A stretch of 64,000 bases of DNA from an uncultured Acidobacteriota bacterium (GTDB lineage: Bacteria; Acidobacteriota; Blastocatellia; RBC074): positions 960,001-1,024,000 of the forward strand of contig CAWCKY010000007.1 of NCBI GenBank assembly GCA_963796275.1, read 5' to 3'. Both the position numbers and the translations under genes were made by a program. Within the stretch, counting starts at the first letter, position 1; every line of letters begins with the position of its first letter. The notes beneath the pieces are model-generated. The model was not told where the DNA came from. It was given only the letters and a program-made list of their open reading frames with translations, and made no database searches. Shown in pieces: positions 1 through 27,190 of the stretch.

Positions 1-106
1 CGATAAACCCGACTTTGCTTTTAGCGTTAATGTACACCGAGTAAAGAAACCAGGTGAGCATCCCAGCAATTCCCCAAAAGACTATCCCTTTAAACAGGTC
101 GCCCAT
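1..106 (-). CDS. 5' end of a membrane protein gene, partial, continuing the injection-system operon off the left edge
   Basis: Read manually: ATG at 106 after GAGG, MGDLFKGIVFWGIAGMLTWFLYSVYINAKSKVGFI..., hydrophobic N-terminal segment, open to the edge. Confidence 0.6.
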   Translation of the reverse strand, partial: MGDLFKGIVFWGIAGMLTWFLYSVYINAKSKVGFI

Positions 107-140
107 AGATTCTAAATCGCCTCAGTTACTCAACCTAGAT

Positions 141-905
141 TCACCAGCGTAATATTTCAGATTCAGATTCAATATCCTGCTCTGGTAGTTCTGTTACCAT
201 ATTCTCAAGCGAACCTTTTAGATTCTCTCTACTAGCAATCACAATACCCTGGTCCTCTTTGCTCTCACCGATATACAGTTCAAAGGTTCCGAACCATGAC
301 GACAAATCATCTTCGGTCGCACTTTGAAAGGATTTAACTCCAAATAACGGAATGAAGCGAGGCATGCTGCGGAAGTGGCGATCGGTAACCCTGCTACCGA
401 ACAATTCCTTCCATTTCCGCTGGAGGTCATTGGTTTTCAATTTTGTAAGCATTATGCTCAAGGCGCCATGTCCCGACATGGCCTCAAAACACCTCTTTTT
501 GGCGGCTTCATCCGTTATTTGAAAAACAAACTCGGGAATATCGACAACCCCTTCAACTCCAAACTGATTTATCAGCCTCGGGTCTGCGCCTTCTATCTCA
601 GATCGACCGGGCATGTGCGGAGGCGGCTTATGAGGGATAACGGCTAAGCCTTGTTGCGGCATCCACTGGGGAGCATTGTCAACGAACTCGGCTAGCAAAC
701 CCGTTTGCAAACAACTTTGCCTGATCATGACTTCAAGCGACAGCTGGTTATCTGCCGATAGATACTCCTCGACAAGCGAGTCGATCAGCTTCTGCACGAG
801 AGTTAGTTCTGATCCAGCCAATGGAAATCGGCTAACCGACAATAAATGGAGATCGCCTTTTGCAATCCCTGAAAGACGCTCAATTGAGTGAGTCCGTGCG
901 GGCAT
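141..905 (-). CDS. Hypothetical protein, paralog of 921..1709 (candidate adaptor/immunity protein)
   Basis: 254 aa ORF with AGAGG RBS; shares WxPQ..AV.P..PPPH.P, KE.FG...TD..F..M and Y.GES..D.G.VI.S with its neighbour. Confidence 0.75.
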   Translation of the reverse strand: MPARTHSIERLSGIAKGDLHLLSVSRFPLAGSELTLVQKLIDSLVEEYLSADNQLSLEVMIRQSCLQTGLLAEFVDNAPQWMPQQGLAVIPHKPPPHMPGRSEIEGADPRLINQFGVEGVVDIPEFVFQITDEAAKKRCFEAMSGHGALSIMLTKLKTNDLQRKWKELFGSRVTDRHFRSMPRFIPLFGVKSFQSATEDDLSSWFGTFELYIGESKEDQGIVIASRENLKGSLENMVTELPEQDIESESEILRW

Positions 906-920
906 TTTTACCTCTTTCGA

Positions 921-1709
921 TCAAACCTCGCTCTGTCTCTTGCGTTTGTCTGACAGTATGTGAGCCAATTCAGAAATTTCTCTATCCAACCATTTGTCTG
1001 AGACTATAACCACTCCTTCATCGCGCATACTCTCGCCAACATAAAAACCCGCGAAGCTTGACAGCGCTCTGAATTGGGTACTGGTTGCATTGAGCAATGT
1101 GTCAATACCTAAAACCGGTAAACAGTCCATCATTTGAAAGGATTTGTCGGTTATCTTATATCCAAATACTTCTTTCGCTTTGGCCAACAGCTTCCGCTCA
1201 TCAAGAACAGTTGCATAGAATATCGTTCCACCGCAGCCAAACAACTCTTCGTATGCTTCCCCTACCGCGTTCTTCTTGGTAATGTAACTGATCATAGGCA
1301 TTACCTCATGTACCGGGAAACCTTCTTTCCATGACAGTGCTTCCTCCCGTGATGGCACATGCGGAGGAGGCTGATCAGGGAAGACAGCCATAGCCAGTTG
1401 CGGCTGCCAGTCGAAAACGTTCAGCCCTATCTTTTCGAGAACTTCAAATTCCAACACGTTACTGATTATTCCCAGACACCCCAGCAGATCTGTTTCAATC
1501 AGGCTGGCATAGCGTTTCTGTAACTCATCCAGGAAACGTTTGATGCTTTTTCGCTCCGCATCAGGTATGGGGAAATTCGAAACAGGTATGAAATAGACGT
1601 TCCCTCTATCTGCGACCTCCGCTTTACGTACAGGATATAGCTCTATCTGCTCACCCTGAGAGTGGAAGACTGATTCGCTGCGCTCCCTCTGTTTCTTCTG
1701 ATATTTCAT
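921..1709 (-). CDS. Hypothetical protein, paralog of 141..905
   Basis: 262 aa ORF with 15 nt gaps to both neighbours; same shared motifs. Confidence 0.75.
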   Translation of the reverse strand: MKYQKKQRERSESVFHSQGEQIELYPVRKAEVADRGNVYFIPVSNFPIPDAERKSIKRFLDELQKRYASLIETDLLGCLGIISNVLEFEVLEKIGLNVFDWQPQLAMAVFPDQPPPHVPSREEALSWKEGFPVHEVMPMISYITKKNAVGEAYEELFGCGGTIFYATVLDERKLLAKAKEVFGYKITDKSFQMMDCLPVLGIDTLLNATSTQFRALSSFAGFYVGESMRDEGVVIVSDKWLDREISELAHILSDKRKRQSEV

Positions 1710-1724
1710 GGACTGATTTTTGGT

Positions 1725-2414
1725 TTAGACCCCGACGTACCAGGCATGGGTGCTGACGCCGCCGATGTCAGGCTTAGCGACACCTATTTTTGGCCTCACT
1801 ACTGTTAAAGAAGCAGCTAAAAGACCGGTCGCCAGCCATAGAGCAATCGTTTCGTTTTTTATTAAGACAGCTTCCGTCTTGACTGCCGCCAAACCGGCCT
1901 TGAGACCGAGAAGTTCGGACTTGTTTCCATAAATCTGGATATTTACGCCTCCAAACTTGACTTTGAACCATCCTTCGTTGATGTACCACGATGACACTTC
2001 ATTGGACGTCTTGGGGCCGACACTGGTATCCAAATAGGGCCCTAGAATAGTCCTAACGTTACTGCCGGTAACCGTCATGACGCGTTCTCCATTAATCGTC
2101 ATGTTTTCATTGGGCGCTACGGTTGTGTTACGCCCCTGAAGAACGTTGCGATCCTCGCCCGAGATAATGGTGGTCGTCAAATGGCCGTTAACGTGAAGCT
2201 CCCTATTTCCCGTAGTCTGTGCTGTCTGATTGCCTTTGACAAGAAGCTGCTCCTGTCCTGGCTGGGGACCGGAGAGGAAACTGTCGCCGGTTATCCCACC
2301 CCAATTCGCCACGCTGCCTTTAATGTTTATGTGATTGTCTGTCCCCGCATCAGGATTCTTGGTTCTTGTTACAGTCAAAGTGTTCATATCGAACACGGAA
2401 GATATATCGGCCAT
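1725..2414 (-). CDS. Free-standing gp5/VgrG C-terminal-type beta-helix (spike needle-like) protein
   Basis: About ten 8-residue repeats (LLVKGNQT AQTTGNRE LHVNGHLT...MTINGERV MTVTGSNV) followed by 7-residue beta repeats; directly after vgrG; AGGAG RBS. Confidence 0.65.
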   Translation of the reverse strand: MADISSVFDMNTLTVTRTKNPDAGTDNHINIKGSVANWGGITGDSFLSGPQPGQEQLLVKGNQTAQTTGNRELHVNGHLTTTIISGEDRNVLQGRNTTVAPNENMTINGERVMTVTGSNVRTILGPYLDTSVGPKTSNEVSSWYINEGWFKVKFGGVNIQIYGNKSELLGLKAGLAAVKTEAVLIKNETIALWLATGLLAASLTVVRPKIGVAKPDIGGVSTHAWYVGV

Positions 2415-2487
2415 GCACTCTCCTTAAAAATTCGATTATTAGATTTTGCGGCTATTGTGTTCTTCTTTTCTGATTCTGCTCTCACTT

Positions 2488-4119
2488 TCATCCAGTCTCC
2501 CTCGAAAAGAACTTGCTCCGTATATGGACCCTTCCATCCGGCGCATTCAGGAAGATATCGCCGGGAGAATTGAGGCAGAGCATCTTCCGCCCTCCCGTTT
2601 CCGGACAGCTGTCTATCAACTGAATCGTCTGCCCGCCAGGAGTCGAGATGACTATCGATTCCTTGCCTCCCACATCGACCAGTTGAATGCGATTGCCGCT
2701 TTTGGTGACGATGCGCTTGATATCGTTGCGGGCCATGTCGGACGCTATCTGCGTCCCATTGCTCCCGACGGCCTGCATCCCTTCACCATCCCAGAAACCC
2801 TGACGCGGTGCGCTGTCTACGCCGTTCCACAAGCCTCCGACGATGTATGGGCGCTCGGCATCGCCGTGCTCGAATGCCACCAGCACCTCGTCGCCGATTT
2901 CGGGCATGAACATGAAGCCTCGCCCGCCTCCCGCGCTCGGCGTCGTCATTCGCGCCCAGGAGGTCATCGCGTCCTCCATCCAATCGTATTTGATCTGAAT
3001 TCTCCCCATCCCGCGCGGGTCGTTGTGATTGACGACGCGGGCGGAGACGACGCCGGACATCCGCTTCGGCTGCGGCTGCTCGGCGACTGTGTAATCCATC
3101 CAGGGCGTGGCGATGAACTCGTTCCGGTAGCCGTCGGTTTGATCGTAGTGGTGAACTACGTGGGTCAGGCCATACTCGCCCTCAGCCGCGAAGTTGGTTC
3201 CTTCGATTTTGACCTTGTCGCCTGGCTTGAGACGCACATTGCGGCTGATGCCGGTAGCGATGACCTTTGAGCCGATGGCCCGCTGGCTCTCTTTTTCGAG
3301 CAAAGTCCGATAGCTCTCGATCTTCGGCGCGCGGCCGTCGAAGACCAGACGGTCAGGCGGCAATTGTTTCGATTGCTCGATTACGGCTCCCACCATATCG
3401 GCGGCAGTATCAGGAAAGAACTGCGGATCTTTACTGACCTTGGTGAAACGCCTGCTCTCCATCGTGCGCGGATCGTAGCAAGTGCCGTCGAAGGCGGGCT
3501 GCCCCAAGCGACCCTTGATCGTAAAACTCGTCAGGCCGTGTTCGTCGTGCCAGCGCATCGTCAGCCCCGTATCCTCGAATCCTTGTCTGATCTCCACGCC
3601 TTTTTCGGTGGGACGGATGAAGCATCCCTGGTCATCGGCGATGCGGTGGATAAAATCGAAATCGCTCTCGCCCCATTGCACGTAGTTCATCCGCGTGGAT
3701 TCGCCGTTGGCGTTGTACTGCAACTCCAACCCATCTTCGCTGATGACCTGTTGAGCTACCTCCTTCAGATTCTTTTTGTAGAAGTAATCCTCCTCAGGCG
3801 TGAGTTGCAGTTTGTAAGATTGAGTAACTCCACGTAATCTCGCGATGTAATCTCCATGTAGTTCGTACGACAGTTCGGCCTCAAGCACGAGGCCGTTGAA
3901 AAGCGGTAACTCGGCTGTATACTCCTCGAAGGCGATGAACTCGATCGGCTTGCCGAGGTAGGTCGCGACAGGAGGTTGTTGCTGGTTGATCAGACGGAAC
4001 TCGATGTCGCACCAGTAGTGAGTGCCCAACTCCTGGCGAATTGCGAGGTTCGAGATCATCGCATCTTTTAAAATTTGGCCGTCGATCTTCAAATAAAAGG
4101 GCCAGTGTCCGTTTGCCAT
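2488..4119 (-). CDS. vgrG: VgrG/TssI-like spike hub protein
   Basis: YVQWGESDFDFIHR; OB-fold motifs ARVVNHNDPRGMGRIQ, WARMTTPSAGGGRGFMFMPEIGDEVLVAFEHGDAERPYIVGGLWNG; TKSGNRI. Confidence 0.9.
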   Translation of the reverse strand: MANGHWPFYLKIDGQILKDAMISNLAIRQELGTHYWCDIEFRLINQQQPPVATYLGKPIEFIAFEEYTAELPLFNGLVLEAELSYELHGDYIARLRGVTQSYKLQLTPEEDYFYKKNLKEVAQQVISEDGLELQYNANGESTRMNYVQWGESDFDFIHRIADDQGCFIRPTEKGVEIRQGFEDTGLTMRWHDEHGLTSFTIKGRLGQPAFDGTCYDPRTMESRRFTKVSKDPQFFPDTAADMVGAVIEQSKQLPPDRLVFDGRAPKIESYRTLLEKESQRAIGSKVIATGISRNVRLKPGDKVKIEGTNFAAEGEYGLTHVVHHYDQTDGYRNEFIATPWMDYTVAEQPQPKRMSGVVSARVVNHNDPRGMGRIQIKYDWMEDAMTSWARMTTPSAGGGRGFMFMPEIGDEVLVAFEHGDAERPYIVGGLWNGVDSAPRQGFWDGEGMQAVGSNGTQIASDMARNDIKRIVTKSGNRIQLVDVGGKESIVISTPGGQTIQLIDSCPETGGRKMLCLNSPGDIFLNAPDGRVHIRSKFFSRETG

Positions 4120-4173
4120 ATAAATTTATTCCTCTGATCGTTACTATCTGGTCATTCCAGGTCGTGCCGGGTC

Positions 4174-4488
4174 TTAGGGAAACGGCAAATGTAAAACTTG
4201 AATGAAATCGCGGTAGTGATTCCCCGTCACATATACCTCGCTGCCATCCCCCAGTACCACACGTAGCGTGCCCGATTCTGCGGAAGTTCCCAGATAGAAT
4301 TCCTTGTAGTAACCATGGGATCGATTCGGCAGATCATTATATTTGTTGACAAAGATGCTGTTTCCGCGCCACCCGAAGGGTAACCGGCCCAACCGGAAGT
4401 CTTTCACCAGGTGATACAGATTACGCAGACGCGGATCGCCGAGCGGGTTGCGATTGTCCGTCTTAACTGTCCATTTGATCGTTTTCAT
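4174..4488 (-). CDS. Barnase/RNase Sa (N1/T1 superfamily) guanyl-specific ribonuclease-like protein
   Basis: F.N....LP....GYYKEF...GTLRVVLG...EVYVTGNHYRDF matches the microbial RNase pattern (catalytic Glu, Arg, His); ATG 4488 preferred over the track start 4533; no signal peptide. Confidence 0.8.
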   Translation of the reverse strand: MKTIKWTVKTDNRNPLGDPRLRNLYHLVKDFRLGRLPFGWRGNSIFVNKYNDLPNRSHGYYKEFYLGTSAESGTLRVVLGDGSEVYVTGNHYRDFIQVLHLPFP

Positions 4489-4522
4489 ACGTTCCAGTAA
4501 TAGAGTGAATTCGCCACGTAGG

Positions 4523-4568
4523 CACAGAGGCACGGAGGGGAACGCGTTTCACTCTCCGTGTCTCTGTG
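4523..4568. repeat. Intergenic hairpin (REP-like)
   Basis: cacagaggcacggag ... ctccgtgtctctgtg inverted repeat between tssE and the RNase gene. Confidence 0.6.
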
Positions 4569-4583
4569 TCTCTATGGCAGGTT

Positions 4584-4937
4584 TCACTTGATCTGCAGGC
4601 GTTCTATGCCTTTGCCTTTGTAAAAGAGCGTGAATACATAAACCGGTTCGTAAGCATCGCTCGTAGGATCAACCTCGATCATCTTCACTTCGACCCAATC
4701 GATTCCCAGTTCACGCAGGCCCTCATTCATTCTCTTGACAGTCTCCTGCCGCAAGCTGAGTTTGAACGGAAGCTCCGCCAATGCGTCACGGATGCCGAAA
4801 TTCGGGGAACCGGGCCAGCCGCTTGCCGGCGTCGCGAGCATCACTTTCAGCAGGCGCAGAAGGTTCGCTTCCGCGCCGGTTGAACGCTCCATCCGACCGA
4901 TCGGATCGATCCGCAAAGGGAAAGCCAGGTAGTCCAT
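4584..4937 (-). CDS. tssE: TssE / gp25-like baseplate wedge protein
   Basis: 117 aa; YLAFPLRI...LLKVMLATPASGWPGSPNFG fits the gp25 pattern; position after the tube gene. Confidence 0.75.
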   Translation of the reverse strand: MDYLAFPLRIDPIGRMERSTGAEANLLRLLKVMLATPASGWPGSPNFGIRDALAELPFKLSLRQETVKRMNEGLRELGIDWVEVKMIEVDPTSDAYEPVYVFTLFYKGKGIERLQIK

Positions 4938-4942
4938 CAGGG

Positions 4943-5368
4943 TTAATTACCGAGAGTGATCTCCTGATAGTTCGCCTGGTTGTGTACCGGTGTGAACTCG
5001 ATGTCGAGCACGTGGTTATAAACGGTCCCGCCGGCATCGGCGCCAACGTTTGAAACGCGGAAGGAACTGATCCAGGCCTTGCATTTGAAGGAGCAGATGA
5101 CATCTTTCTTCGAGTCATCTTTCCAGCACTCGAGTTTCAACTCCTTGATCTTCTCGCGTGTCGCAACATTACTAAGGTCGAAAAATTTCTTAATGGTTGC
5201 GAATTTGGCATTCTGGTCGTCGTGCAGATCGAGACGAACATTCACCGCGGTGGTGAGGGTTTGCATCTGCGGCATCCCCGCAGGATCCTTCGCCGTGTTC
5301 ATGGCAAAAACGGCATCCACCACATCTACTTTCTCACCATCAAATGTTATGGTAGCTCTAACTGGCAT
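4943..5368 (-). CDS. tssD: TssD/Hcp tube protein, T6SS subtype iii-like
   Basis: 141 aa; MPVRATITFDGEKVDV...NTAKDPAGMP resembles the Bacteroidota TssD N-terminus; GGAGG RBS; ends EITLGN. Confidence 0.7.
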   Translation of the reverse strand: MPVRATITFDGEKVDVVDAVFAMNTAKDPAGMPQMQTLTTAVNVRLDLHDDQNAKFATIKKFFDLSNVATREKIKELKLECWKDDSKKDVICSFKCKAWISSFRVSNVGADAGGTVYNHVLDIEFTPVHNQANYQEITLGN

Positions 5369-5628
5369 AACAATCCTCCATTGAAAGGTAATCAGTTTCA
5401 GTTTTTAGACAGTACCGGCAGGATTCGCCGAGATCACCCGAGGTAAATCCTGTCAATCCTGTCTGAGTAACACTTCAGACTCACTGAGCGTTGATCACTG
5501 CCGAAGGAATAAGGAGAACTGTTCCCGCATCCATTCGAGCATCGATTTAAATTTCGCGCCGAGTCGCGCGCGAAAACTTGGCCTCGGCGACTTCCCTGCT
5601 TCAATCACCGATAGTGGCGTGTTCGGTG

Positions 5629-5664
5629 CGCTGCCGGTCATGACGCGTAACTTCACCGGCAGCG
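5629..5664 (-). other. Stem-loop immediately after the tssC stop (stability/attenuation element)
   Basis: cgctgccggt ... accggcagcg 10-bp inverted repeat; no clear U-tract on the minus strand. Confidence 0.4.
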
Positions 5665-5667
5665 TTT

Positions 5668-7026
5668 TCAGTTTCCCGCACTATCCGGCACATCGCCCAG
5701 AGGCTTGAATTCAGGGACGTCGATCTTGACGCGGAAGACCTCAGCCGGTCCCGTCGGCATCACTTCGAGATAGATGTCGCACACGCCCTGCATCCGTTTG
5801 TTGTAGTCTTTATCGACAAACAGGTTGTATTCGAGGATCGTGCCCTGCGACTTCTGATCTTCCAGCAACCGCTGGATCGGCTTCTCGACTTCTTCATCCA
5901 TAAAATCCCGGGTCAGCACCTGTCCGGCAATTTCACGCAGCCGAGCTGAGACGGAGCGTTCGAGATATGAGAGCACTCGGTAGGCTGTGAAGAATTTATA
6001 GACGCCATATTTGTCATCGGCCAGACTGCGGCAGCCGTAAAAACAGAGATGGTTATCGGCGTCGCGGATGATAGGAATCACCTGCATCTCTTGCGAAAGC
6101 AATTCCATCTGGCTGATCAAACATTCGATGCGCGCCTTTTCGACCCCTTTGATTCGGCCGAACTTGGTGCCGATCGGGCCCTGTACCACGCTGTCGCGCG
6201 CGCGGTCGGTGCGCGCCACCGCTCCGGCGAAGATCAGTGAAGCCGGCGCATAAAGATCATCGCCATACTCCTTTTCGAACCAATGAGCATCGCGAAGTTT
6301 GAGGGTGCCGACCATAACGACGTCGGAGGCCGCCTGATCGTCCGGGCGTTTGAGGAATTCGTATCGTCCGCCGGGTCGAAATTGGTCTACCACCTTCTTG
6401 TACGACCCTTCATCACCCAGATCGGTGATGAGCAGCATGCCCCACTTCCACGCCTCTTCTTCGAGCGCCTCGCGGATCATCATCGGGATTTCACCCGGCA
6501 CGACCACGTTGCAGATGTCGTCGCGAAAGTTGAAATTGTCGTTGCGGTTGGTGACGAACCGACGGATAGCTTCAAGGGTTGAGCTCTCGCGGTTGCGCAT
6601 CGACTGCGGGTCCGCATTGTAGATGAAGAATTCGACCGGTTTGCGCTGCTTACCATCGGGGACGATCGAATTTTCGAAGAAAAGCCAGATCTGCCGATAG
6701 GCCGACTCGAGCGGGCGAATCTCATCGAAGAGTTTCTCCATCACCTCATCGCGTACTTTTTCAGCGTGGTCGATCTGCCCCTGGAATTTTTGGAGAGTTT
6801 CATCGTAACTGTCCGCCTCAGAGAGCAACGATTCGAAGTCGGTCAGGCGCAATAAAAATTCGCTCGCCGTCTCTGGCGTGAAGATAGTCTCCACTGAGGT
6901 CTTCTGTTCACCCAGCCGCGGATGAATGGCGACGAAGATCTCGTCCAGCACTTTGCGCACCGGCGCTTCGGCATCGGCGAAGATATCAGCAATGGTTGCA
7001 GTCTTGACTTCCTGTTGGGCCATCAT
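5668..7026 (-). CDS. tssC: TssC contractile sheath large subunit, T6SS subtype iii (DUF5458-like)
   Basis: 452 aa; LESAYRQIWLFFEN, VVVPG, MLLITD, YAPASLIFAG, GPIGTKFG and a sheath-like C-terminus; overlaps the tssB stop (ATGA). Confidence 0.8.
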   Translation of the reverse strand: MMAQQEVKTATIADIFADAEAPVRKVLDEIFVAIHPRLGEQKTSVETIFTPETASEFLLRLTDFESLLSEADSYDETLQKFQGQIDHAEKVRDEVMEKLFDEIRPLESAYRQIWLFFENSIVPDGKQRKPVEFFIYNADPQSMRNRESSTLEAIRRFVTNRNDNFNFRDDICNVVVPGEIPMMIREALEEEAWKWGMLLITDLGDEGSYKKVVDQFRPGGRYEFLKRPDDQAASDVVMVGTLKLRDAHWFEKEYGDDLYAPASLIFAGAVARTDRARDSVVQGPIGTKFGRIKGVEKARIECLISQMELLSQEMQVIPIIRDADNHLCFYGCRSLADDKYGVYKFFTAYRVLSYLERSVSARLREIAGQVLTRDFMDEEVEKPIQRLLEDQKSQGTILEYNLFVDKDYNKRMQGVCDIYLEVMPTGPAEVFRVKIDVPEFKPLGDVPDSAGN

Positions 7027-7505
7027 TCACCACCTTTCCCGGCATGTGCGACCTTCTCCAGCTCAGCGTGCAGGCGGGCCAGGGCGGCGAGTATCTGCTT
7101 GCGTTGAGCCGGATTTGACCAGGCGCGTTTGACAGAGGGCAGCGCCCAACGATCCTTCATCCGATAGAGCAGATCGATGGCGCTCTTCAAATCAGCGATA
7201 TCGTTGCGTTGGCCCGGATTCCTTTTCTGGATATTTTCCGGGCTGAAATCTTTGAGGCTGCGGAACTCGAGATCTGCCACGAACTCTGTCGCCTCCTCAC
7301 CTGCCTGGGTTTCAAAATGGATTGAAGGTTTGAATTTCTCTAAGGCGTCATTGACGCTGTCCACGCGCACGGCCTCTTCATCTTCACTCTCGAGTTCCCT
7401 GCCCATGCGCTCTAACGTCACAGGAAGCACAGCCAAGGTCGTATCGGTAGGAACGGGACGTACCGCAGGGGTTATACCTTTACGGATGACTTCGATCTTA
7501 GGCAT
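7023..7505 (-). CDS. tssB: TssB contractile sheath small subunit, T6SS subtype iii-like
   Basis: 160 aa; ALEKFKPSIHFE...LEFRSLKDFSPENI; translationally coupled to tssC; GGAG RBS. Confidence 0.75.
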   Translation of the reverse strand: MPKIEVIRKGITPAVRPVPTDTTLAVLPVTLERMGRELESEDEEAVRVDSVNDALEKFKPSIHFETQAGEEATEFVADLEFRSLKDFSPENIQKRNPGQRNDIADLKSAIDLLYRMKDRWALPSVKRAWSNPAQRKQILAALARLHAELEKVAHAGKGGE

Positions 7506-7889
7506 ATCTTCTCCACTCCTAAATAGGAGGCGTTAATAGGTTAATAAAGAAGGGGCTATAGATTTATTGAGTTATTCGATGCCAACCGTCAGCGATTGTG
7601 GACCGCATATCTTTTTCCACGTATGAGGAAAGTGGTTGGTACTAAGATGTATGGCTTATCTGGGTAATCGCGGCAATGGGGGCTACTGGGGCAAAGGAGG
7701 ATTCGGTTCATAATTTTCACTGTGTCAATATGGCCGGACAGGCTGTAGGTCCGACAGCGAAAGAATTCGGGAGATTTCAAGAATTTCTGCTCGCCGGTTC
7801 CTTACTCAGCCCAACACGGCGAACTGAAATCTACAATTTTTTCCAGCAAAAGCAACCGGATGTTACCATTGATGGTTTACCGGGATCAA

Positions 7890-9632
7890 TCATAAAGCTT
7901 CTGCCGGTTCCATATTGACCACAACGCGAACCTCCAATCCCAATAGTGACCGCTCCTGCAGACTCGCCTCCAACTCACGTTTCAAGATTTCCGCTTCTTC
8001 CTCCGGGGCAGCAAAGGCATCACGATCGAGCGTGATAGTTACTCTCTGTACTCGGTGTAATCCGTCGGCCCCGCGTTCGAGCATCGGTACAGCTTCTACC
8101 GCGCGGATCTTCGGTTCGAACGATCTGGTCATCGCCTCCAGGTCGGGATACGTAACCGGACGTTCGCGCGAGAGCAGCAGCTCGGTGAACCTTCGCTTGG
8201 TCTCCATCAATCCCTCGCCATCATCGCCACCTGCCGCCCCCGTAACATTTCTGATATCCAATGTGCGCGGCGTCGCGCGATTGAGAAAAGTCTTAATCCC
8301 TCCGGCGGAGACATCGTTGCCCAGCGCTCCATTGCAAAGCAGTACCCGGACATTCGCATAAGCATCCGCCTCACCGCGCGGGGTGCGCGCCGGTTCGATT
8401 TCGAGCTTGTCCAGACGGATGCGGTAACGCCCTGCATCTTCATCGGCGCTCGGTTCGCTTTCGAGCAGGTACTTCGTGCCGCGCTCCCCCTTGACCGAAA
8501 GCAACTTGACCAGATGACGCACGCGCCCGCCTCCCGTCGTCAACGGCACCACCGCACCGTCTGCGGAAAACTTGATCGTTTGATTGAGCGTTTCAATATT
8601 CGATGCCGTAGTGCAATGTAAGACGACTCGAATCAAGTCTTCAGAGATAGTCGCTGTCTCCTTCGGCAATCCGATTCGCAGCCACGCGCGCGGACGATCG
8701 AACAAATCCTTCTGTCCCGTTTGCCCCGTTTGCCCCGAAGCCCGCTGAAATATTCTTCCGAGCGGCGTCTCCATTCTCCTCGGAATCCGAGTCAAGAACC
8801 GGCGTTCACTCGGGATGTGTGGAAAAACAAAGACGCGGCCGCCATAAAACCCCTCCGGCAACAAATCGGTCGCCACCGGCTCCCCATCTCCGACCAGCCA
8901 ATCAAGCTTGCGCACCCCGCCATTGCCCGTACACGGCCGCAGCAACCCTTCGGCTCGTATCCCGCCTTCATCATCGAGCAGGCACCATATCTCACGTTTC
9001 AAATAACCGGCCAGATCGCGCGCCTCAGGCAGTAATTCAAAATAGAATCCGTGCCGGCTCAGATGTTCCTCGTCGTCAACATCAATCGCAATGTAGATCG
9101 CGGGACTGCTCCCCAACTCCGCCGGCACGGCATCAAACGAAGGTCGCGCATCTTCCAGCTCTTTAACCAGCTCCGTCCCGTGATGCAGCCGCAACATCCC
9201 GTCCTGATAGATGGCGACGAAAGCTATCCTGGCGGTTGAGACGTCGATAGAGGTGTCGAGAGCGAAAGTAAGCTTCTCTCGCGGAACCGCCTCTCCCACC
9301 AATTCCGTCATCTCCTCAAAAGACTCGCGCCCATTCAACAAACTGAATCTGATGACGCTCTGCGCTGCGCGAGCATTCCGCTCGGGCATTCCCAATCCCG
9401 ACATCAATTCGTCGAGAATCGCCAGCGGTATACTCTCGGCCGCCTGCTCATAGACCTCGCCTATCTGTGCAGCAAATGAGCGGAGCAACACGGCCAGAAT
9501 AGGATCCGTCTCCTGCGTCGTGATGCCATATTCCTTGAGCAGACGGCGAAAGTCTTCGCGTAGTTTTTTATCTATTTCGGTGGGACGCGGTGGTAGCCAT
9601 TGTGGCATAGAATCTTTAGGAACCTCCTTCAC
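7890..9632 (-). CDS. tssF: TssF / baseplate J-like wedge protein
   Basis: 580 aa; N-terminal DPILAVLLRSFA and C-terminal GGDDGE...LLSRERPVTYPDLE baseplate motifs. Confidence 0.75.
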   Translation of the reverse strand: MKEVPKDSMPQWLPPRPTEIDKKLREDFRRLLKEYGITTQETDPILAVLLRSFAAQIGEVYEQAAESIPLAILDELMSGLGMPERNARAAQSVIRFSLLNGRESFEEMTELVGEAVPREKLTFALDTSIDVSTARIAFVAIYQDGMLRLHHGTELVKELEDARPSFDAVPAELGSSPAIYIAIDVDDEEHLSRHGFYFELLPEARDLAGYLKREIWCLLDDEGGIRAEGLLRPCTGNGGVRKLDWLVGDGEPVATDLLPEGFYGGRVFVFPHIPSERRFLTRIPRRMETPLGRIFQRASGQTGQTGQKDLFDRPRAWLRIGLPKETATISEDLIRVVLHCTTASNIETLNQTIKFSADGAVVPLTTGGGRVRHLVKLLSVKGERGTKYLLESEPSADEDAGRYRIRLDKLEIEPARTPRGEADAYANVRVLLCNGALGNDVSAGGIKTFLNRATPRTLDIRNVTGAAGGDDGEGLMETKRRFTELLLSRERPVTYPDLEAMTRSFEPKIRAVEAVPMLERGADGLHRVQRVTITLDRDAFAAPEEEAEILKRELEASLQERSLLGLEVRVVVNMEPAEAL

Positions 9633-9989
9633 TCCAATAAGTTCTCGAACTCTGAACGATAAGACAAATTATCTTCATCAAGCTTTTCAATCAAGGTCAA
9701 AGTCAATCATGGTTAAAGAAAATTAGTCGATCGTTCATTGCCACCGCCTCGACGAAGAAACATCAAATTCGTTTAGACAAAATCCCCTGAAATATTCCAC
9801 GATGCAAAGATTGTTCGTGATCCAAGCCTATTTGGATCGAGCGCAGCAGATCCCGAGGATATGGGTCTTCATTTGCCCGAACCCCTCTATTTTTACGGGT
9901 ATGCACGGGGCAACCAACTACGCATCCGAACTTCAATTGTTAGTGGGAAATCTTAGGACAAAATTTCATGAAAAAATTTCATTTCGATT

Positions 9990-10472
9990 TTACAAAACCT
10001 TTTTTCCGCGCCTTTGCGATTCCCTTTTCGTTTTCACCTGCCGACCTGGATCTTTCAAGCCGCGTCTGGCTGTAATCCAAAGCAAGCTGCCCAATAGTAT
10101 CGCCTGTATTCCGAAGAAGGCTGTGGTTAAGTAACTTATGAGTGGCGTTAACAATAAACCTTCGGACAATTCGTTTGCATGGAGATGACGGTTGATATTG
10201 CGAATCGTGAAGAAAACGATAAAGCCAACGACAATAACGCGGTTTCTCAGGGGGTTTCGCGCGGCAAGCAGAGCCAAAAGCCCCATGACAAAGGCGAATG
10301 CCCCGATGACGCGAAGTAGATATATGTTCGCAGCGGTCCAATCAAGACGAGCGCCATATAAGGTCGCGGAGATTTTTTGAAATCCGATTGAGGACATCAG
10401 TCCCAATCCTACTGCCAGGTGGGAGATGGCGATGAAGAACATCAGGCTGCGCAGCGCCTTCAAATAGGTCAT
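9990..10472 (-). CDS. Small 4-TM membrane protein of unknown function
   Basis: 160 aa with four hydrophobic segments; GGAGAG RBS. Confidence 0.7.
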   Translation of the reverse strand: MTYLKALRSLMFFIAISHLAVGLGLMSSIGFQKISATLYGARLDWTAANIYLLRVIGAFAFVMGLLALLAARNPLRNRVIVVGFIVFFTIRNINRHLHANELSEGLLLTPLISYLTTAFFGIQAILLGSLLWITARRGLKDPGRQVKTKRESQRRGKKVL

Positions 10473-10591
10473 TTATTACTCTCTCCTTGGAAGACTATAA
10501 GGCAAGTGCAACATAACCAACGACCTACCATCCGGACGCTTCTCAAAGTCTTAGAATTACAGATACCTGTGCTACTTGATGAAAACCGATT

Positions 10592-11606
10592 TTATCGTTT
10601 TGCGATTACCTGAAAGTAGCAGAATCTCGAGTTCCTCAAAATCTTTCCCTCCCTCTTTCGGGGCACTTAGCGTCAGCGTGAAGTCCTGCGTTTCAATCGC
10701 CCTGAATCTATCAGCCGGCACTCTGACGGCGACAATCTGGTTGGATCTGGTCTGCCTGACTCTGCTGGCCTCGCCTTTCCAAATCTCTCTGTTTCCATCA
10801 ACCGTCGTGACGACCGCTAGATAAGGCGGCTGTTTCTCTTGCCGTTCCATGGTCACTCGCAGCTCTACGAACGTTGTGTCGACGAAGATAACCGCTTTGT
10901 CCAGCCCTTTGATGTCTCTGACTCCCGGCGCCAGTGCCAGAAAAACGACTCGATTTTTCGATGCTTGAGACCCGTCTGAATCATTTACCAATCGGTCCAG
11001 CCGGCCAGTAACATTATCAAGATCATCACGCAGGGCGCTGCCCTGTTTGCGTTCCTCAGCCAGTAGCTGTCGTTCGCGGGCGAGTTGACGCTCTGCCTCC
11101 ATAGCTCTTTGCTCGATTGCGGCACGCTCTTCACCTGCCGCGGCGAGTCGCCCGCGCAGCCGGAGCAGTTCGATGCCCAAACTCAGAGCCAGAATTAACA
11201 GAAATGCCGCTGTCAAGCTGGAACCCAGAACCAGGTAGCGTTTCTCAAACAACCCTAGCCACGAAGACGAGTACAGCGAAGAAAACCAACTCCCACTGCG
11301 ACTATCCGAAGCAGAATGAATTGTCGATTGTGATGTGCAGGCATGGACTAGCTGCCTGGCCATCTCGATTCTAGCGCGGCGCTTCTCGGAAGCGAGATAG
11401 TGCTGCTCGAAAAGTTGACGCTCGGGGTCTGAAAGTTCACCTTTCGCATAATCCTCAATCAGTTCCTCTTCCAGAGCCAGTACCTGTTCAAACATATCCC
11501 CGTCCTCCAGATAAGCCTCTTCGAAGCGCGCCTCATCCTCTTCAGACAGCTGATTGAGGAGATACCGGATTATCGTCTGATCACTTATTGCGGTTGGTTG
11601 CTTCAC
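10592..11606 (-). CDS. Membrane-anchored anti-sigma factor-like protein (probable +1 error near 10624)
   Basis: Duplicated N-terminal YL..LS..E...FE..YL helices, one TM, a coiled coil and a C-terminal beta domain; removing one base at GAATC 10622-10626 gives the end EICYFQVIAKR* at 10592 (track ORF ends 10572). Confidence 0.7.
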
Positions 11607-11711
11607 AATAGCATACGACCTTTCATCGTATAGTGGTAAAAACCCTGGCTTAATTTCTCAATAATTTTCAGTGAGCAGGTTTCCCATGTACCCTCGGTCG
11701 ATCTTTTTGCA

Positions 11712-12263
11712 CTACCCTTTGTATACCTTTACGCACTTCTCATAACACCTATTAAGCCTCGCCCTGATACGGAATACCCTCAGCCTATAAGCATTTATTG
11801 TCAATCCCATACCTAGAGCTGCCTTTTCTCTGCCGTTCTTATTCAGCGTACAATTTTGAACAATCAGATTACGCTCTTCCGGCGATATCCCCTGCAAGCA
11901 TTTTTTCATGCAGTCCAATCGATGATCATCGAATTCCTGATCAATCAGGGGAGACGAAAAGCGATCGTCGAGTCGTTCCCACTCTCTTTTTGAATCGTCC
12001 CAGTGTTCCAGCAGCACCAAACGCGCCACGCCGAAGGAAAACTTGAAAACATCTTTGATCTCAAGGCCTTCTTCGATCTTACGAGCCATTCGATTGATCG
12101 TCTCGTCGCCCAGCTCGTCAGGTATCCGGCACCCTTTCCTTTCGAAGAAATAAATTAATCTCGTACGAAGTTTTTCATACTCTTCTCCGGCTAGTGCCGA
12201 ATCAGGATTTAGCCGCGCAAGTAACCGAATTAAACCTTCTTCACTCAACTCCCAGTTCTTCAT
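11712..12263 (-). CDS. ECF-type RNA polymerase sigma factor
   Basis: 183 aa; region 2-like YEKLRTRLIYFF..DELGDETINR and region 4 HTH AALGMGLTINAYRLRVFRIRARL; abuts the CHAT gene. Confidence 0.8.
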   Translation of the reverse strand: MKNWELSEEGLIRLLARLNPDSALAGEEYEKLRTRLIYFFERKGCRIPDELGDETINRMARKIEEGLEIKDVFKFSFGVARLVLLEHWDDSKREWERLDDRFSSPLIDQEFDDHRLDCMKKCLQGISPEERNLIVQNCTLNKNGREKAALGMGLTINAYRLRVFRIRARLNRCYEKCVKVYKG

Positions 12264-15200
12264 TCAATTCATCTTTTCCCTGGTTCGTTTGCCATCCAGG
12301 TTCGCCCATTCTCCTGATTGGATGAAGCTCGCCCAATAGTAGGGATGTTGCCGATTAGCCTTCTTGAGCATCTCCAATTGCACTTGCCTCAATGCCTCCC
12401 CGCGCCCCTCACCTTGCTGCAACAAATGGTAATAGGAGATCATCAATTCTCGCGTCCCTTTGTCTGAGACGGCCCAGAGACTCATGACCTGCGTTTCCGC
12501 GCCGGCCAGCACCAACGCGCGGCGCAGACCATGGACCCCATCTCCATTCTTCACGTCTCCAATTCCGGTATCACAAGCCGATAGCACCACCAGCTTCGTC
12601 CCCCACAGATTGAGTCCTGTCACCTCTAGTGCAGTCAGTATCCCATTGTCTTCCTGTTTATGTTCGTTGGCTCCGGCCAGCGCTAACCCGGACCGCAACA
12701 ATGGGTTCTCGATGCTGATGCCGCTCCTTTCCATCTGCCGTATCATACGGTCCGGATCGTCGCTACTTTCTTGATAGCCGCGCCCTCCGCCGGCGCTCAA
12801 CATTTGCGAATCTTCGAGAAAGAACCCGTGTGTAGCGATGTGCAATAATGCCGGACTGCTTATCTGGCTGAGCTCCGTCTTGGTCGCCTGCTCTCCGGTG
12901 AGCAGGATCGACCCGGGCATCAACTCGCGCAACACATCTCCTTCCTGCGCCGTGTAGGGCAACGGCGAGAAATAGAACTCTCTGAAAGCCGATGCAGCCG
13001 ATTCATCCTTCTTACTCGGTTGCGACCGGCGCCCCGCATCAACCTTCGCGCGTTTTCCGAAGGCGGGGTTTGCGACTACCAGCGGGCCGTTACGGCTTTC
13101 TCGGTCCACCTGCAAGCGTAGCAGATCGCGCCCGCTGGCGAGATAGCTGATCGAGTATCGCTCGATCGCATACCGGCCCCGCTCATCCAGAAGCGCTACG
13201 AAAGGGACGAGATTGAGATTGCCATCCGGCGAGATGAGCAACTGAGTAATCTTTCCGAGTAACGGGCGCAGAGGTTGAAATACCTTCTGATCCACGGCAC
13301 GAGCTCGGCGCTTCACATCACTGCGCTTCGGGTCGCGTAATGCATCGCGCAGTGCAGTGATGGCCTCGTCGATTATCTTTACCTCACCCAGTTCCTTCCA
13401 CTGAATCTTTCCGTGCTGGCGCAGGATATACGCAACATAACAAGGTTGGCCATATGCCTCCTCATTTCTACTGGATTTGGCATTGATTGGACGGTATGAG
13501 GCGAATTCGATCAATGCGACATCGGCGGGGATGGCCGATTGCACTGCCGCGATCGTGATCGGAAGAGCCTGGGCTCGAAATTCACTGCTTCTGTGACTTA
13601 TGTCGGCCTCATAGGCTTCTGCCCTATCTTCGAGCTTCTTGAGCCGCCCGTTATATTGCTCGGCGGTCATTCTTTGGGGACCGGCGAGGACGTGCCTGGC
13701 AAGCTGCGATCGGGTATCGGTCAACTCATCGAGCAAGACTCGATCTTTCGAGTCGAAGCGCGCGCGTAACGCGTTGAGATTTTCAGAAGTGGCGTCGAGC
13801 GCACGCCCCTTGCGTTGCAGGATCATGGCGGCAGCCAGGTTGAGCGCCGCTGGATTATCGGGAGCATAGCGGAGATGTAGCGATATTGTTTGATCGACTT
13901 GCCCCGAAAGAGTGGCAAGATATGCGAGTTTTTGCCTCTCTGAGCCCGTGACGAGATTGAACGCGAGATTGCGCTCGCTCAGAATGTTGCCCCGCGACTG
14001 TAATGCGATGGCCTGGGCTATATCGCCTTTGGCTGCGTTAAGTATGGCGAGATTGTTGAGAGAAGAAGCAATGTAGGGGTGTTCCGGGCCCAAAGCTTTC
14101 TCCAGGATGACCAGGGAACGTTTAACCAGCGGTTCTGCTTTTGCGTATTCGCCTCGGCTGTTGTAAAGGCCTGCGATGTCGTTGAGAGAACTACCGACAT
14201 CCGGATGTTCGGGACCAAGCGATTTCTCCCGGATATCCAGCGCGCGCCGGTAAAGCGATTCCGCGCGCGCATAGTCTCCCTTGTCCCAGTATAGATTTGC
14301 GATATTGTTGAGTGAAGTTGCGACATCCGGATGATCAGGGCCCAGCGTTTTCTCCCGAATAGCCAGTGCGCGACGATGCAGCGGCTCCGCCTTCTCATTG
14401 TCCCCCTTGTCGCGGTAGAGACTGGCAAGATTACTGAGAGACTGAGCAACGTCGGGGTGCTCGGGTCCCAGTACCTTCTCCCGAATCGCCAGCGAGCGTT
14501 GATAGAGCGGTTCTGCCTTCTCATAGTCGCCCTTATCGCGATATATGATAGCTAGATTGTTGAGGGAAAGAGCGACATCGCGGTGTTCCTGGCCAAGCGC
14601 TCTCTCACGTATATCGAGCGCGCGTTGGCGCATTGGCTCAGCTTTCTCATAGTCGCCTTTATCGCGGTAGAGATTGGCTAGATTATCGAGAGTGACGGCG
14701 ACATAAGGATGCTCCGGTCCCAAAACATTCTCGAAGATGGTTAACGCTCGCTGATAGAGCGGCTCTGCCTTAGCGAAGGCCCCCATGTCCCAACAAAGGA
14801 CCGCGAAATTGATGATAGGTATTGCGACATCAGGATGCTCCGGCCCTACCGCTTTCTCCCAAATCGCGATTGAGCGTTGAAATATAGGAACTGCTTTCGC
14901 ATAGTCGCCTTTGTCGCGGTAGAGAAGCGCTAGATTGTTGAGAGAAGCACCGACAGTCGGATGCTCGGCTCCCAGCCCTTTCTCACGGATGGCCAGCGCT
15001 CGCTGATACAACGATTCGGCTCTTTCATACTCGCCTTTGTCGCGATAGAGGACGCCCAGACTGTTGATAGCCGCGCCGGCATCCGGGTGATCCTTTCCCA
15101 GTATCTTTTCACGGATCGCCAGGACGCGCTCAATCAACGGAAGCGCCTCGTCATACCTGCCTGCGCGTTCCAATTCGAGATGCTTATCAAACAGTTCACG

Positions 15201-15743
15201 AGCCTCCTGCAGAGCGCGGTCATTCTCTGTTGCATCGCGCAGCTCCTCGACCCGAAGCTCATAGCTTCCAGCCTGAACATTTTTGATTCTTGAGCGAACA
15301 TCCAACCGGTACTCGCCTGCCGTTTTCGCAACCAGCGATACGATCTCTTTCCCGCTAGTCCTACGTTCGGAGTCGAGGTCTGCGATCTGCTTACCATCTA
15401 CCCCAGATACCCTCACCACTACATCAATGCCATACTGTTCGACCGCTACCTTCAAAAACTGATCTGCAATCAGCCTGATTTGATAGCTATGTTGTTGCCC
15501 GCCCGCCAGCTCCCGCCTGGCCGGCTTTCCCGCCTCGATCGGGCGAACTTCTTGCTCATCCGCATTTCCGCGCGACTCTTGTATTGGCTTTTCCCCTATC
15601 AGGTTTCCCGAAAAAATGCGCAATGGCGCCACTGCACCTGTCAGGCTGAATAGTAGGAAAAGAGCCAGGAAATTTGCCGGATTTTGATAAATGATCTGTC
15701 TCTGATGTTGGGCTGGAGCTGTGTGAGTTCGGCTCCTTATCAT
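12264..15743 (-). CDS. Exported TPR-repeat CHAT-domain (caspase-like) protease
   Basis: N-terminal hydrophobic segment, PPC-like domain, about 10 42-aa TPRs (LG.EHP.VA.SLNNLA..Y...G.Y..AE.L..RAL.I.EK), catalytic LHIATHG and VVLSACDTG, HPYYWASF; ATG 15743 after GGAGGAG. Confidence 0.92.
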   Translation of the reverse strand: MIRSRTHTAPAQHQRQIIYQNPANFLALFLLFSLTGAVAPLRIFSGNLIGEKPIQESRGNADEQEVRPIEAGKPARRELAGGQQHSYQIRLIADQFLKVAVEQYGIDVVVRVSGVDGKQIADLDSERRTSGKEIVSLVAKTAGEYRLDVRSRIKNVQAGSYELRVEELRDATENDRALQEARELFDKHLELERAGRYDEALPLIERVLAIREKILGKDHPDAGAAINSLGVLYRDKGEYERAESLYQRALAIREKGLGAEHPTVGASLNNLALLYRDKGDYAKAVPIFQRSIAIWEKAVGPEHPDVAIPIINFAVLCWDMGAFAKAEPLYQRALTIFENVLGPEHPYVAVTLDNLANLYRDKGDYEKAEPMRQRALDIRERALGQEHRDVALSLNNLAIIYRDKGDYEKAEPLYQRSLAIREKVLGPEHPDVAQSLSNLASLYRDKGDNEKAEPLHRRALAIREKTLGPDHPDVATSLNNIANLYWDKGDYARAESLYRRALDIREKSLGPEHPDVGSSLNDIAGLYNSRGEYAKAEPLVKRSLVILEKALGPEHPYIASSLNNLAILNAAKGDIAQAIALQSRGNILSERNLAFNLVTGSERQKLAYLATLSGQVDQTISLHLRYAPDNPAALNLAAAMILQRKGRALDATSENLNALRARFDSKDRVLLDELTDTRSQLARHVLAGPQRMTAEQYNGRLKKLEDRAEAYEADISHRSSEFRAQALPITIAAVQSAIPADVALIEFASYRPINAKSSRNEEAYGQPCYVAYILRQHGKIQWKELGEVKIIDEAITALRDALRDPKRSDVKRRARAVDQKVFQPLRPLLGKITQLLISPDGNLNLVPFVALLDERGRYAIERYSISYLASGRDLLRLQVDRESRNGPLVVANPAFGKRAKVDAGRRSQPSKKDESAASAFREFYFSPLPYTAQEGDVLRELMPGSILLTGEQATKTELSQISSPALLHIATHGFFLEDSQMLSAGGGRGYQESSDDPDRMIRQMERSGISIENPLLRSGLALAGANEHKQEDNGILTALEVTGLNLWGTKLVVLSACDTGIGDVKNGDGVHGLRRALVLAGAETQVMSLWAVSDKGTRELMISYYHLLQQGEGRGEALRQVQLEMLKKANRQHPYYWASFIQSGEWANLDGKRTREKMN

Positions 15744-16269
15744 CGCTTCTCCTCCCCCGATTTCACAATTTTGGGCATCGTCTTGGCGACAAGAATACCG
15801 CAAGTGCTATTAAGCGATGGGACACGGCGCAAAGTTTATCATATATATAGGATGGAGAACGCGGTTGAAAGCGTGGCATTTATGGAGAGAACTTGTATAA
15901 AGATGCAACTAAGTAACCACTGGAGGTGGTAAGCTTGATTGTCTCCTTATGTCCACTCTGTCGATTTGTTCGCGCGAGCCTTCCTGTTGCGGTCGCCATT
16001 CCATCGCCTCCATCACAGAAATCATCCCGATAATTCACCTTGTATCTCCGCTACCAATGAATGCCGGCGATAATTTTGGTTTGCTAGAAAGTAATAAAAA
16101 TAACTTCAGCGATCCACATCTGCAATTTTTAATTCTCAATTTCCAAATTCTAAATATATACAGCCACGCAGGTTATCCGGTCTAAGGCATCGCTTTGTCT
16201 GGCGGTATTAAAAATATTTTCCGGTCAGCACAGCCGATTCGTCATGTTTTTCCAAAATACTGTCACATA

Positions 16270-16317
16270 ATGATATGTAGATGATATGTAGATGATATGT
16301 AGATGATATGTAGATGA
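16270..16317. repeat. Tandem repeat (atgatatgtag)x4
   Basis: Four perfect 11-bp units plus atga in the divergent CHAT/caspase intergenic region. Confidence 0.9.
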
Positions 16318-16394
16318 AAAATACGGTCTAACATCAGATTGCCATGGACAGATCGATTTACAGCCCACACGAGTAAAAATTATTGAGAGATGCG

Positions 16395-18623: not shown

Positions 18624-18794
18624 CGCCCGGGATATAGCGAAATTGTCATGAACGAGTAGAAAAATAATGGGAAAATAATGGAGAGGGAGATGTAGACAAA
18701 AAGTACGCCACAATCTACGCTTGCATCACAGTTAACAATAGTGTATTTCTAAATCTCTTCACACCCCGTGATCATTACTTTGGAGGTTCATATT

Positions 18795-19199: not shown

Positions 19200-19209
19200 G
19201 AATGACTAA

Positions 19210-19770: not shown

Positions 19771-19775
19771 CGCTG

Positions 19776-21486: not shown

Positions 21487-21591
21487 ATCAAACTACGACG
21501 AACATTGGTGCAGTACCGGGACAGTAACCAATCATAAGCTCCACATCACATAACCTTGTCATCAAATTTCTAACGGATTTTGTGGCATCTG

Positions 21592-21670
21592 CCCGAAGGG
21601 CAGAGAGATGGTAGCCAGGGGTTGAGCGCGTAGCGCGAACCCCCTGGCTATCTTCTTAACTCCCTTCGGG
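21592..21670. repeat. REP-like palindromic element
   Basis: cccgaaggg..tagccagggg ... cccctggcta..cccttcggg nested inverted repeats. Confidence 0.6.
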
Positions 21671-23022: not shown

Positions 23023-23030
23023 AGGTTCTT

Positions 23031-24897: not shown

Positions 24898-24900
24898 AGC

Positions 24901-27183: not shown

Positions 27184-27190
27184 ATAAGGG

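Follow-up and report, generated by a model that had tools for sequence, protein, structure and literature searches.

Type VI secretion systems (T6SSs) are contractile machines for which reviews up to August 2026 recognize four classes, the one with a DUF5458 sheath being placed in Bacteroidota only. Confinement of this class, T6SS-iii, to Bacteroidota is likewise stated in PMC4793230, PMC9113992, PMC13098142 and PMC13584744, and acidobacterial T6SSs, where these papers assign a subtype, are of type i (i4b in PMC9113992). In PMC10781749, the T6SS-iii membrane protein TssN is described as five transmembrane (TM) helices with a cytoplasmic domain, and TssR as carrying a vWA domain. Tools of the TXSScan type are presented, in papers describing them, as modelling subtypes i-iii only. 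Full-text literature searches returned no DUF5458-type T6SS described outside Bacteroidota, with the proviso that supplements, which they did not cover, could hold exceptions. The present analysis deals with a T6SS locus of an uncultured Acidobacteriota bacterium (genome G000), of which a first cluster lies at positions 1-9632 of a 64,000-nucleotide stretch of contig C7 (960001-1024000), hereafter called the window. This locus probably represents a complete T6SS of a distinct lineage that is patchily distributed in Acidobacteriota and whose sheath is a distant relative of the Bacteroidota type.

The core of the locus is a bona fide T6SS, recognized by sequence or by fold through TssB/TssC, TssE, TssG, TssK, a ClpB/ClpV-class ATPase, VgrG and a PAAR-Rhs protein with an Imm49-type gene. 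An earlier annotation of the same DNA, the original prediction, had read the cluster as tssF-tssB-tssC-tssD-tssE-RNase-vgrG-needle-two paralogs-TM protein, and the same order was recovered, with all open reading frames on the minus strand. The small sheath subunit TssB (160 aa, 7023..7505) matched PF05591 (E 5.2e-7) and TIGR03358 (E 3.7e-6), and the large subunit TssC (452 aa, 5668..7026) matched PF17541 (E 3.6e-20, 72.7 bits for a cut-off of 25). The two genes are adjacent and overlap, giving the two-subunit sheath of T6SSs. In the same way, the VgrG spike (543 aa, 2488..4119) was identified by NF033848 (E 1.5e-48), PF04717 (E 1.7e-26) and PF05954 (E 2.7e-11). The 117-aa product of 4584..4937 had no match in Pfam, NCBIfam or PHROGs and none by PDB profile search, and it was assigned to TssE because its AlphaFold model (pLDDT 77) best fits gp25-type baseplate wedge proteins. 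The top Foldseek matches of this model were 9gtp_S (E 9e-4), 6rao_H, 5iv5_BD, 5iw9_B (gp25) and 6gj1_D, which come from the baseplates of a Streptomyces contractile injection system (CIS), Afp, phage T4 (5iv5_BD, 5iw9_B) and a T6SS (6gj1_D).

Two further components are proposed on weaker similarity. The 580-aa protein encoded at 7890..9632 is a candidate TssF by its position, size and synteny; it matches TIGR02243 at E 6.4e-8, far below the cut-off, and is 38-72% identical to the product of the gene found immediately upstream of tssG in six relatives. The 141-aa protein at 4943..5368 has the position and size of a tube subunit and would be Hcp-like. Its top PDB match is a Bacteroidales TssD, although a weak one (E 0.09 with the single sequence, 0.026 with a profile), its closest Atlas clusters are automatically named Hcp, and its gene is present twice in three relatives. 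Altogether, hidden Markov models (HMMs) recognized TssB, TssC, VgrG and the ribonuclease of the cluster, TssE was recognized by fold, and TssF and TssD gave weak matches. These results bear out the proposal that the cluster encodes a T6SS-type contractile machine.

The original prediction also reported the lack of TssG, TssK, ClpV and PAAR, which holds for the window only: these parts seemed to be lacking because of the window edge, and all four lie 2-13 kb to its left. In the adjoining 20 kb (L001, whose own coordinates are used for these genes), which is co-oriented with the cluster, TssG is encoded at 11028-11939 (PF06996, 25.6 bits for a cut-off of 24.6) and a frameshifted TssK at 9311-11004 (TIGR03353, E 1e-12; PF05936 was matched in the relative G199). 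They are accompanied by a ClpB/ClpV-class ATPase (6603-9200; 685 bits with the ClpV1 model, 924 with ClpB) and by a PAAR-Rhs protein of 1502 aa (13293-17801; PAAR_motif, 28.1 bits for a cut-off of 27) next to an Imm49-type immunity gene (12474-13256). The locus thus encodes TssE, TssF, TssG and TssK, with TssF identified by a sub-threshold match and synteny and TssK by a frameshifted gene, together with a ClpV-type ATPase, VgrG and a PAAR tip. The parts found to the left of the window therefore indicate a full T6SS and not a stripped-down injection system. The locus would then not be the undescribed branch of contractile injection systems that had been suggested, but a complete T6SS belonging to a lineage apart.

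The clustering of these genes is not due to chance, because six other genomes carry them too, in a conserved order. The order tssB-tssC-tssD(x1-2)-tssE-tssF-tssG-tssK-clpV-FHA protein is kept in G199, G289 and G123. It extends up to clpV in G045, and variants of it occur in G269, G482 and G575; a vgrG-needle-paralog-paralog module is inserted within the series in G269 and G482. A ClpV-class unfoldase is encoded in all seven loci compared.

The large sheath subunit links the locus to the Bacteroidota type, at the level of the superfamily only, as judged by sequence. The window TssC had only 151 matches at E <= 0.001 in a set of 1.84 billion cluster representatives, of which 27 reached E <= 1e-30, and a profile search seeded with distant clade members returned 3 proteins. 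A first tree of 78 rows was built from 76 representatives 380-700 aa long, the window TssC and the VipB of the same genome; in it, the window TssC fell in a clade of 21 rows apart from a group of 51. When ten representatives were sampled, PF17541 scored 370 and 757 bits in the core of the large group, which is thereby recognized as the classical family, 133-227 in its three outliers, 64-86 in a five-row side clade and 30-73 in the clade of the window. The profile of the latter (18 rows) compared with that of the PF17541 core clade (41 rows) with probability 100 and E 1e-40 over 394 columns, against a probability of 0.1 with 15 acidobacterial VipB. This upholds the view that the sheath follows the PF17541/DUF5458 pattern of Bacteroidota and not that of VipB.

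In parallel, tblastn against 72,556 plasmids matched only Bacteroidota DUF5458 genes, at 21-23% identity to the window TssC. Six named Bacteroidota TssC sequences of plasmid origin (Hymenobacter, Bacteroides, Tenacibaculum, Bernardetia, Capnocytophaga and Runella) were added to a final IQ-TREE tree of 72 rows, along with 54 of 77 full-length representatives, 11 sequences from acidobacterial genomes and the window TssC. In this unrooted tree, a branch with 99% SH-aLRT support parts the 12 acidobacterial TssC from the six named Bacteroidota ones, so that the window TssC does not nest among the latter. An annotated TssN was found near TssC in all three Bacteroidota loci examined (Hymenobacter, Capnocytophaga and Runella). 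By these sequence comparisons, TssC belongs to the PF17541 superfamily, with 72.7 bits against the 370-757 of the core, and to a separate deep clade of it. For the small subunit TssB, hhalign gives similar distances to Bacteroidota TssB (probability 91, E 9e-7) and to T6SS-i TssB (probability 86, E 5e-6). VipB was tried as a root and rejected, having a branch of 3.3 changes per site in the 78-row tree and no profile similarity. Four metagenomic members of the clade (P0122, P0124, P0131 and P0134) carry an N-terminal extension of about 100-130 residues, for a total of 555-584 aa.

The host is acidobacterial and, by its MetK, of the class Blastocatellia. The assembly spans 9.46 Mb in 7 contigs with about 54% G+C. 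The closest named matches of the MetK encoded in the window are 'Blastocatellia bacterium' proteins from Blastocatellia metagenome-assembled genomes (MAGs), at 93-94% identity, and all named sequences among the 120 matches listed are acidobacterial. Moreover, the closest TssC homologs are named as Blastocatellia and Acidobacteria MAGs. The acidobacterial origin that had been assumed is thereby supported, and the locus differs in its host from T6SS-iii.

This TssC was found in 8 of the 401 genomes of a phylum-wide sample, including G000; the other seven sequences are 56-60% identical to it and belong to three other families (coded f15, f31 and f83). A sample of the class gave six carriers in 301 genomes, all in the family of the window (5 of 86 when G000 is left out), and none among the 214 genomes of other families of the class. 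T6SS-i is commoner in the same phylum sample, VipB being present in 43 genomes against eight for this TssC, and VipB is absent from all seven other carriers. G000 is the only one of the eight to hold both kinds of sheath: a canonical T6SS-i with DotU, TssM, ImpA_N and VipB (452 bits) is encoded on contig C3, at about 1489950-1497758.

Those components of the described membrane complexes that were searched for were not retrieved. In G000, the models of TssM, DotU (TssL), ImpA_N (TssA) and VipB match only at the T6SS-i locus on C3, and none of the four was found in the stand-alone carriers G199, G289, G123 and G269, which are each 99-100% complete, G199 being a closed genome. None of TssJ, TssL, TssM and TssA was seen in the locus itself, no search having been aimed at TssJ. 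The locus thus differs from T6SS-i, which has a VipB-type sheath (PF05943) with TssJLM and TssA; it resembles T6SS-i in that TssG and TssK are found by models derived from this class and in that VgrG, PAAR-Rhs and ClpV are present. On the side of T6SS-iii, TssN, TssO and TssR (PF17555, PF17561 and PF17643) were not found in any of the five carriers searched, the searches not extending to TssP and TssQ; the TssN model found its target on a Hymenobacter plasmid with 166 bits. The statement of the original prediction that TssN-R are lacking is to this extent confirmed. Its label 'subtype iii' is not kept: the locus should not be filed under that name because the defining membrane complex was tested and not found.

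Three membrane proteins that the first inventory had missed are products of the window itself: by tblastn, all three G000 copies lie on its minus strand, at 35462-39023. The first gene of the module (38265..39023) encodes a 4-TM protein of 252 aa (fam20) with no match in Pfam, NCBIfam or PHROGs. It is followed by the gene of a 423-aa ubiquitin-like/6-TM/FHA-like protein (fam12, 36895..38166, AlphaFold model with pLDDT 67.6) and by that of a 477-aa VWA protein with a C-terminal TM helix (fam11, 35462..36895; PF00092, E 8.6e-17). The three genes co-occur strictly with tssC; for instance, fam12 has exactly the same distribution as TssC, with eight genomes of the 401 sampled in the phylum and six of the 87 sampled in the family. 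Beyond G000, the fam12 gene adjoins tssB/tssC in each of the seven phylum-sample carriers and also in G482 and G575. The VWA-TM gene lies directly upstream of tssB in G199, G289, G123, G045, G269 and G482, and of tssF-tssB in G575. A polytopic membrane protein precedes tssB together with the VWA-TM protein in six of six loci, with a 4-TM gene nearby in at least four: homologs of the latter stand beside T6SS genes in G482, G199, G289 and G123 and, in G575, adjoin the remaining genes of the locus without a break. Since they are strictly co-occurring and operon-linked, we infer that these proteins are the best candidates for the envelope anchor. A fusion of the 6-TM and VWA genes in G045 and G269 was considered and rejected, as the frames are separate and the Arg/Pro-rich extension is out of frame.

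In the model of fam12, residues 1-86 form a beta-grasp resembling ubiquitin/SUMO (TM-score 0.6-0.72 on the target), six long helices span residues 134-338 and the terminal beta-strands give a weak FHA signal. This combination of a ubiquitin-like fold with a polytopic membrane domain is, as modelled, the architecture of a secretion-system scaffold. For type VII secretion, PMC11217815 describes the ubiquitin-like unit as a free protein or as part of a fusion with the polytopic EccD. The free form is EsaB/YukD, and FHA domains, kinases and phosphatases are further features of type VII components. The same alternative is met here: the acidobacterial families f15, f31 and f83 encode the beta-grasp on its own, as a protein of about 87 aa, and in the family of the window it is fused. 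Unlike type VII systems, the locus shows no gene for an EccC/EssC-type ATPase or a WXG100 protein; fam12 has no sequence-family match, and over its whole length Foldseek matches it only weakly to ESX type VII core chains (TM-score about 0.17). The likeness is therefore an architectural lead and not evidence of homology. A complex prediction of TssK (1-530) with the 135 N-terminal residues of fam12 (score 0.00) spoke neither for nor against a contact. The FHA-like strands of fam12 look circularly permuted between families: f31 has a complete domain after the TM helices, and in G000 and G482 the last FHA-like strands precede these helices, after the ubiquitin-like domain.

In such a machine, a baseplate made of TssEFGK, VgrG and the needle would nucleate the tube and the sheath and fire like other T6SSs. 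Contraction of the sheath would drive the spike and the Rhs toxin, and probably the ribonuclease too, into neighbouring cells, and ClpV would recycle the contracted sheath. The tie to the envelope would be provided by the 4-TM, the ubiquitin-like/6-TM/FHA-like and the VWA-TM proteins, along with a membrane protein bearing a C-terminal FHA domain (FHA-TM) encoded after clpV (L001 5025-6566), in replacement of TssJLM or TssNOPQR. Firing may be controlled by Ser/Thr phosphorylation, through kinases and FHA domains here and a PP2C phosphatase in relatives. The Rhs-immunity pair and the ribonuclease point to interbacterial antagonism.

It is tempting, though the balance leans slightly the other way, to see in this lineage a fifth class of T6SS, native to Acidobacteriota and with an envelope anchor built independently, the third non-homologous one after TssJLM and TssNOPQR. 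The anchor of such a class would consist of the ubiquitin-like/6-TM/FHA-like scaffold, of type VII-like architecture, with the VWA-TM, 4-TM and FHA-TM proteins. Should the co-occurring membrane proteins indeed form the anchor, T6SSs acquired one at least three times in evolution. The locus reveals, in one of the major phyla of soil, a deep sister lineage of the DUF5458 sheath family with a full baseplate, ClpV and an Rhs toxin, in which no component searched for was found of the two membrane complexes described. It would also add a second contact-dependent weapon, so far overlooked, to those of soil Acidobacteriota. Public metagenome annotations already name these proteins 'TssC', so that databases do show the family; it is not characterized in the literature searched, where the variant was not found. 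The claim is directly testable because closed genomes with only this system exist (e.g. G199).

Several points weigh against a complete and distinct T6SS with an anchor of its own. The membrane module may equally be regulatory and not structural, because VWA, FHA, kinase and PP2C form the domain set of the threonine-phosphorylation pathway that regulates the Pseudomonas H1-T6SS, whose genes the FHA, kinase and phosphatase accessory genes of the locus resemble. The TssF assignment combines a sub-threshold HMM match with synteny, and in hhalign the tube candidate reached a probability of 9.8 against Hymenobacter and Runella TssD together and of 1.6 against Hymenobacter alone. The ATPase scores below the curated cut-offs of both ClpB and ClpV. 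The TssC tree is unrooted because VipB is not meaningfully alignable, and its metagenomic clade members and intermediate clades have no assigned taxa. As for the membrane-complex searches, those for TssO and TssR had no positive control, and TssP, TssQ and TssJ stood outside them. Finally, the machine is known here from genes and predicted folds alone, no outer-membrane component was identified among them, and tssK of G000 is frameshifted.

This frameshift bears on another reading, compatible with that of a complete T6SS of a distinct lineage, in which the G000 locus is a decaying relic that no longer fires. The tssK gene is split into frames of 418 aa and 146 aa by a one-base frameshift, at a place (near L001 9860) where the TssK of G482 (595 aa) aligns unbroken across the change of frame. 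Contigs from related populations, in three metagenome runs, have one more base at the site. No near-identical contig covers it, and a true mutation is not distinguishable here from an assembly error. In every sequencing run the share of words in common with the tssK stretch stayed below one half, with only small shares, from soil and plant metagenomes, and in an assembly of 7 contigs an indel of one base could stem from faulty sequencing. A single RNA contig of 151 nt was identical, which is no evidence of transcription. The second argument for decay is the split of the locus: 4TM-6TM-VWA-tssF-tssB-tssC-tssD-tssE form a contiguous series in G575 (TssC about 92-93% identical), whereas in G000, and in this genome only, about 26 kb (9633..35461) lie between the VWA gene and tssF. 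Moreover, the canonical T6SS-i on C3 is a further system in the same genome. Conversely, the other genes examined in the locus are all open and of expected length, and the two halves are co-oriented and could each have a promoter of its own. The G000 copy may be impaired, because of the TssK frameshift and of the 26-kb split, but a relic that has ceased to fire is rather unlikely.

Less probable still is a very divergent T6SS-iii whose membrane complex would be homologous to TssNOPQR and too diverged for the Pfam models. It would account for a large sheath subunit above the PF17541 cut-off, for the presence of ClpV, for the weak TssD affinity of the tube candidate, whose top PDB match is a Bacteroidales protein, and for the absence of TssA, TssL and TssM from the stand-alone carriers, which T6SS-iii shares according to the literature. 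In architecture only, the 6-TM protein with its cytoplasmic domains is reminiscent of TssN, and the VWA protein of TssR with its vWA domain, as both are described in PMC10781749. Against this, TssN, TssO and TssR were not found with models of which that of TssN passed its control, and the three membrane proteins matched no TssN-R model of Pfam or NCBIfam. The baseplate proteins are not recognizably similar, as the TssE, TssF and TssG profiles have no significant likeness to their Hymenobacter counterparts in hhalign, and TssG and TssK are recognized by T6SS-i-derived models instead. To this are added the TssC clades parted with 99% support and the FHA-TM, Ser/Thr kinase and PP2C genes and ubiquitin-like domain in the locus, the FHA, kinase and PP2C partners not being among the T6SS-iii components listed in the literature consulted.

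An extracellular or cytoplasmic CIS of the Afp/PVC type, which the fold matches of TssE to Streptomyces CIS and Afp chains, the generic baseplate-assembly family that is the sole HMM match of TssF, the pyocin sheath that is the sole PDB sequence match of TssC (E 1.3e-3) and the lack of a known membrane complex could suggest, is very improbable in view of the split sheath, TssG, TssK, VgrG, PAAR-Rhs and the ClpV-class unfoldase common to the seven loci, and no tape-measure, tail-fibre, cap or lysis gene appears among the Pfam matches of the locus, for which no dedicated search was made. Systems of the Afp/PVC type have a single-chain sheath, a tape measure, a cap and tail fibres and do without ClpV and TssK. 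T6SS-iv, known from Amoebophilus, has an Afp-like gene set without ClpV, and the presence of ClpV argues against membership in this class.

Several accessory genes surround this core. A small ribonuclease of the barnase/N1-T1 type (4174..4533, minus strand; PF00545, 27.9 bits for a cut-off of 24) sits between tssE and vgrG; of the seven loci compared, those of G000 and G482 alone encode it. It is likely a cargo toxin; no immunity gene adjoins it, and Barstar (PF01337) was not found anywhere in G000. Downstream of vgrG, a gp5-C-like beta-helix needle of 229 aa (1725..2414) is suggested by weak matches to PF22178 (22.1 bits, below the cut-off) and phrog_430 (E 9e-5), the only PHROG match in the locus. 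A second copy, encoded at L001 19080-19643, shares 42% identity with it over 114 aa. Next come two accessory proteins, A (262 aa, 921..1709), which has no family match, and B (254 aa, 141..905), recognized by its paralogy to A. They are true paralogs, with 30% identity over 215 aa (E 7e-28), and homologs of the pair are found beside or near vgrG in four of six relatives (G482, G269, G289 and G123). The last gene, of a 139-aa protein with two TM helices, has only its start in the window (1..106) and crosses the left edge.

Farther left, a tetratricopeptide repeat (TPR) protein (L001 17819-19042) lies between the second needle and the PAAR-Rhs gene, and a DUF7691 protein (12020-12484) between the Imm49-type gene and tssG. 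Past the FHA-TM gene, two membrane Ser/Thr kinases are encoded at 2759-4996 and 241-2586. The latter, at the downstream end of the locus, is fused to PEGA/CarboxypepD_reg repeats and to an FGE-sulfatase-like domain; FGE-like proteins are said, in the title of a preprint, to be T6SS immunity proteins.

In f31, the locus carries extra genes on its divergent side (L020 4476-7155 in G199; also in G289 and G123). They are a ThiF/E1-like gene (65.8 bits), a gene with a weak, sub-cut-off UQ_con/E2-like match (16.7 bits) and the gene of the free beta-grasp protein of about 87 aa, which ends in Gly, with a kinase and a PP2C phosphatase in the vicinity. A tblastn search of G000 retrieved neither the E1-like nor the E2-like gene. 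From these matches, the set may be a ubiquitin-like conjugation module linked to the T6SS, and in f31 such conjugation might control T6SS assembly, a free ubiquitin-like protein standing beside E1-like and E2-like genes.

The 26-kb block that separates the two halves of the locus in G000 consists of unrelated genes, among them those of an anti-sigma zf-HC2 protein, CHAT-TPR and caspase-TPR proteins, a C39-like peptidase, a cytochrome c peroxidase, beta-propellers and oxidoreductases, and no tRNA was found in it. Within this block, at window positions 12264-19770, a group made up of a TPR-CHAT protein (1179 aa), a caspase-TPR protein (746 aa) and a C39/C70-like cysteine peptidase looks like a conflict-system set unrelated to the T6SS.

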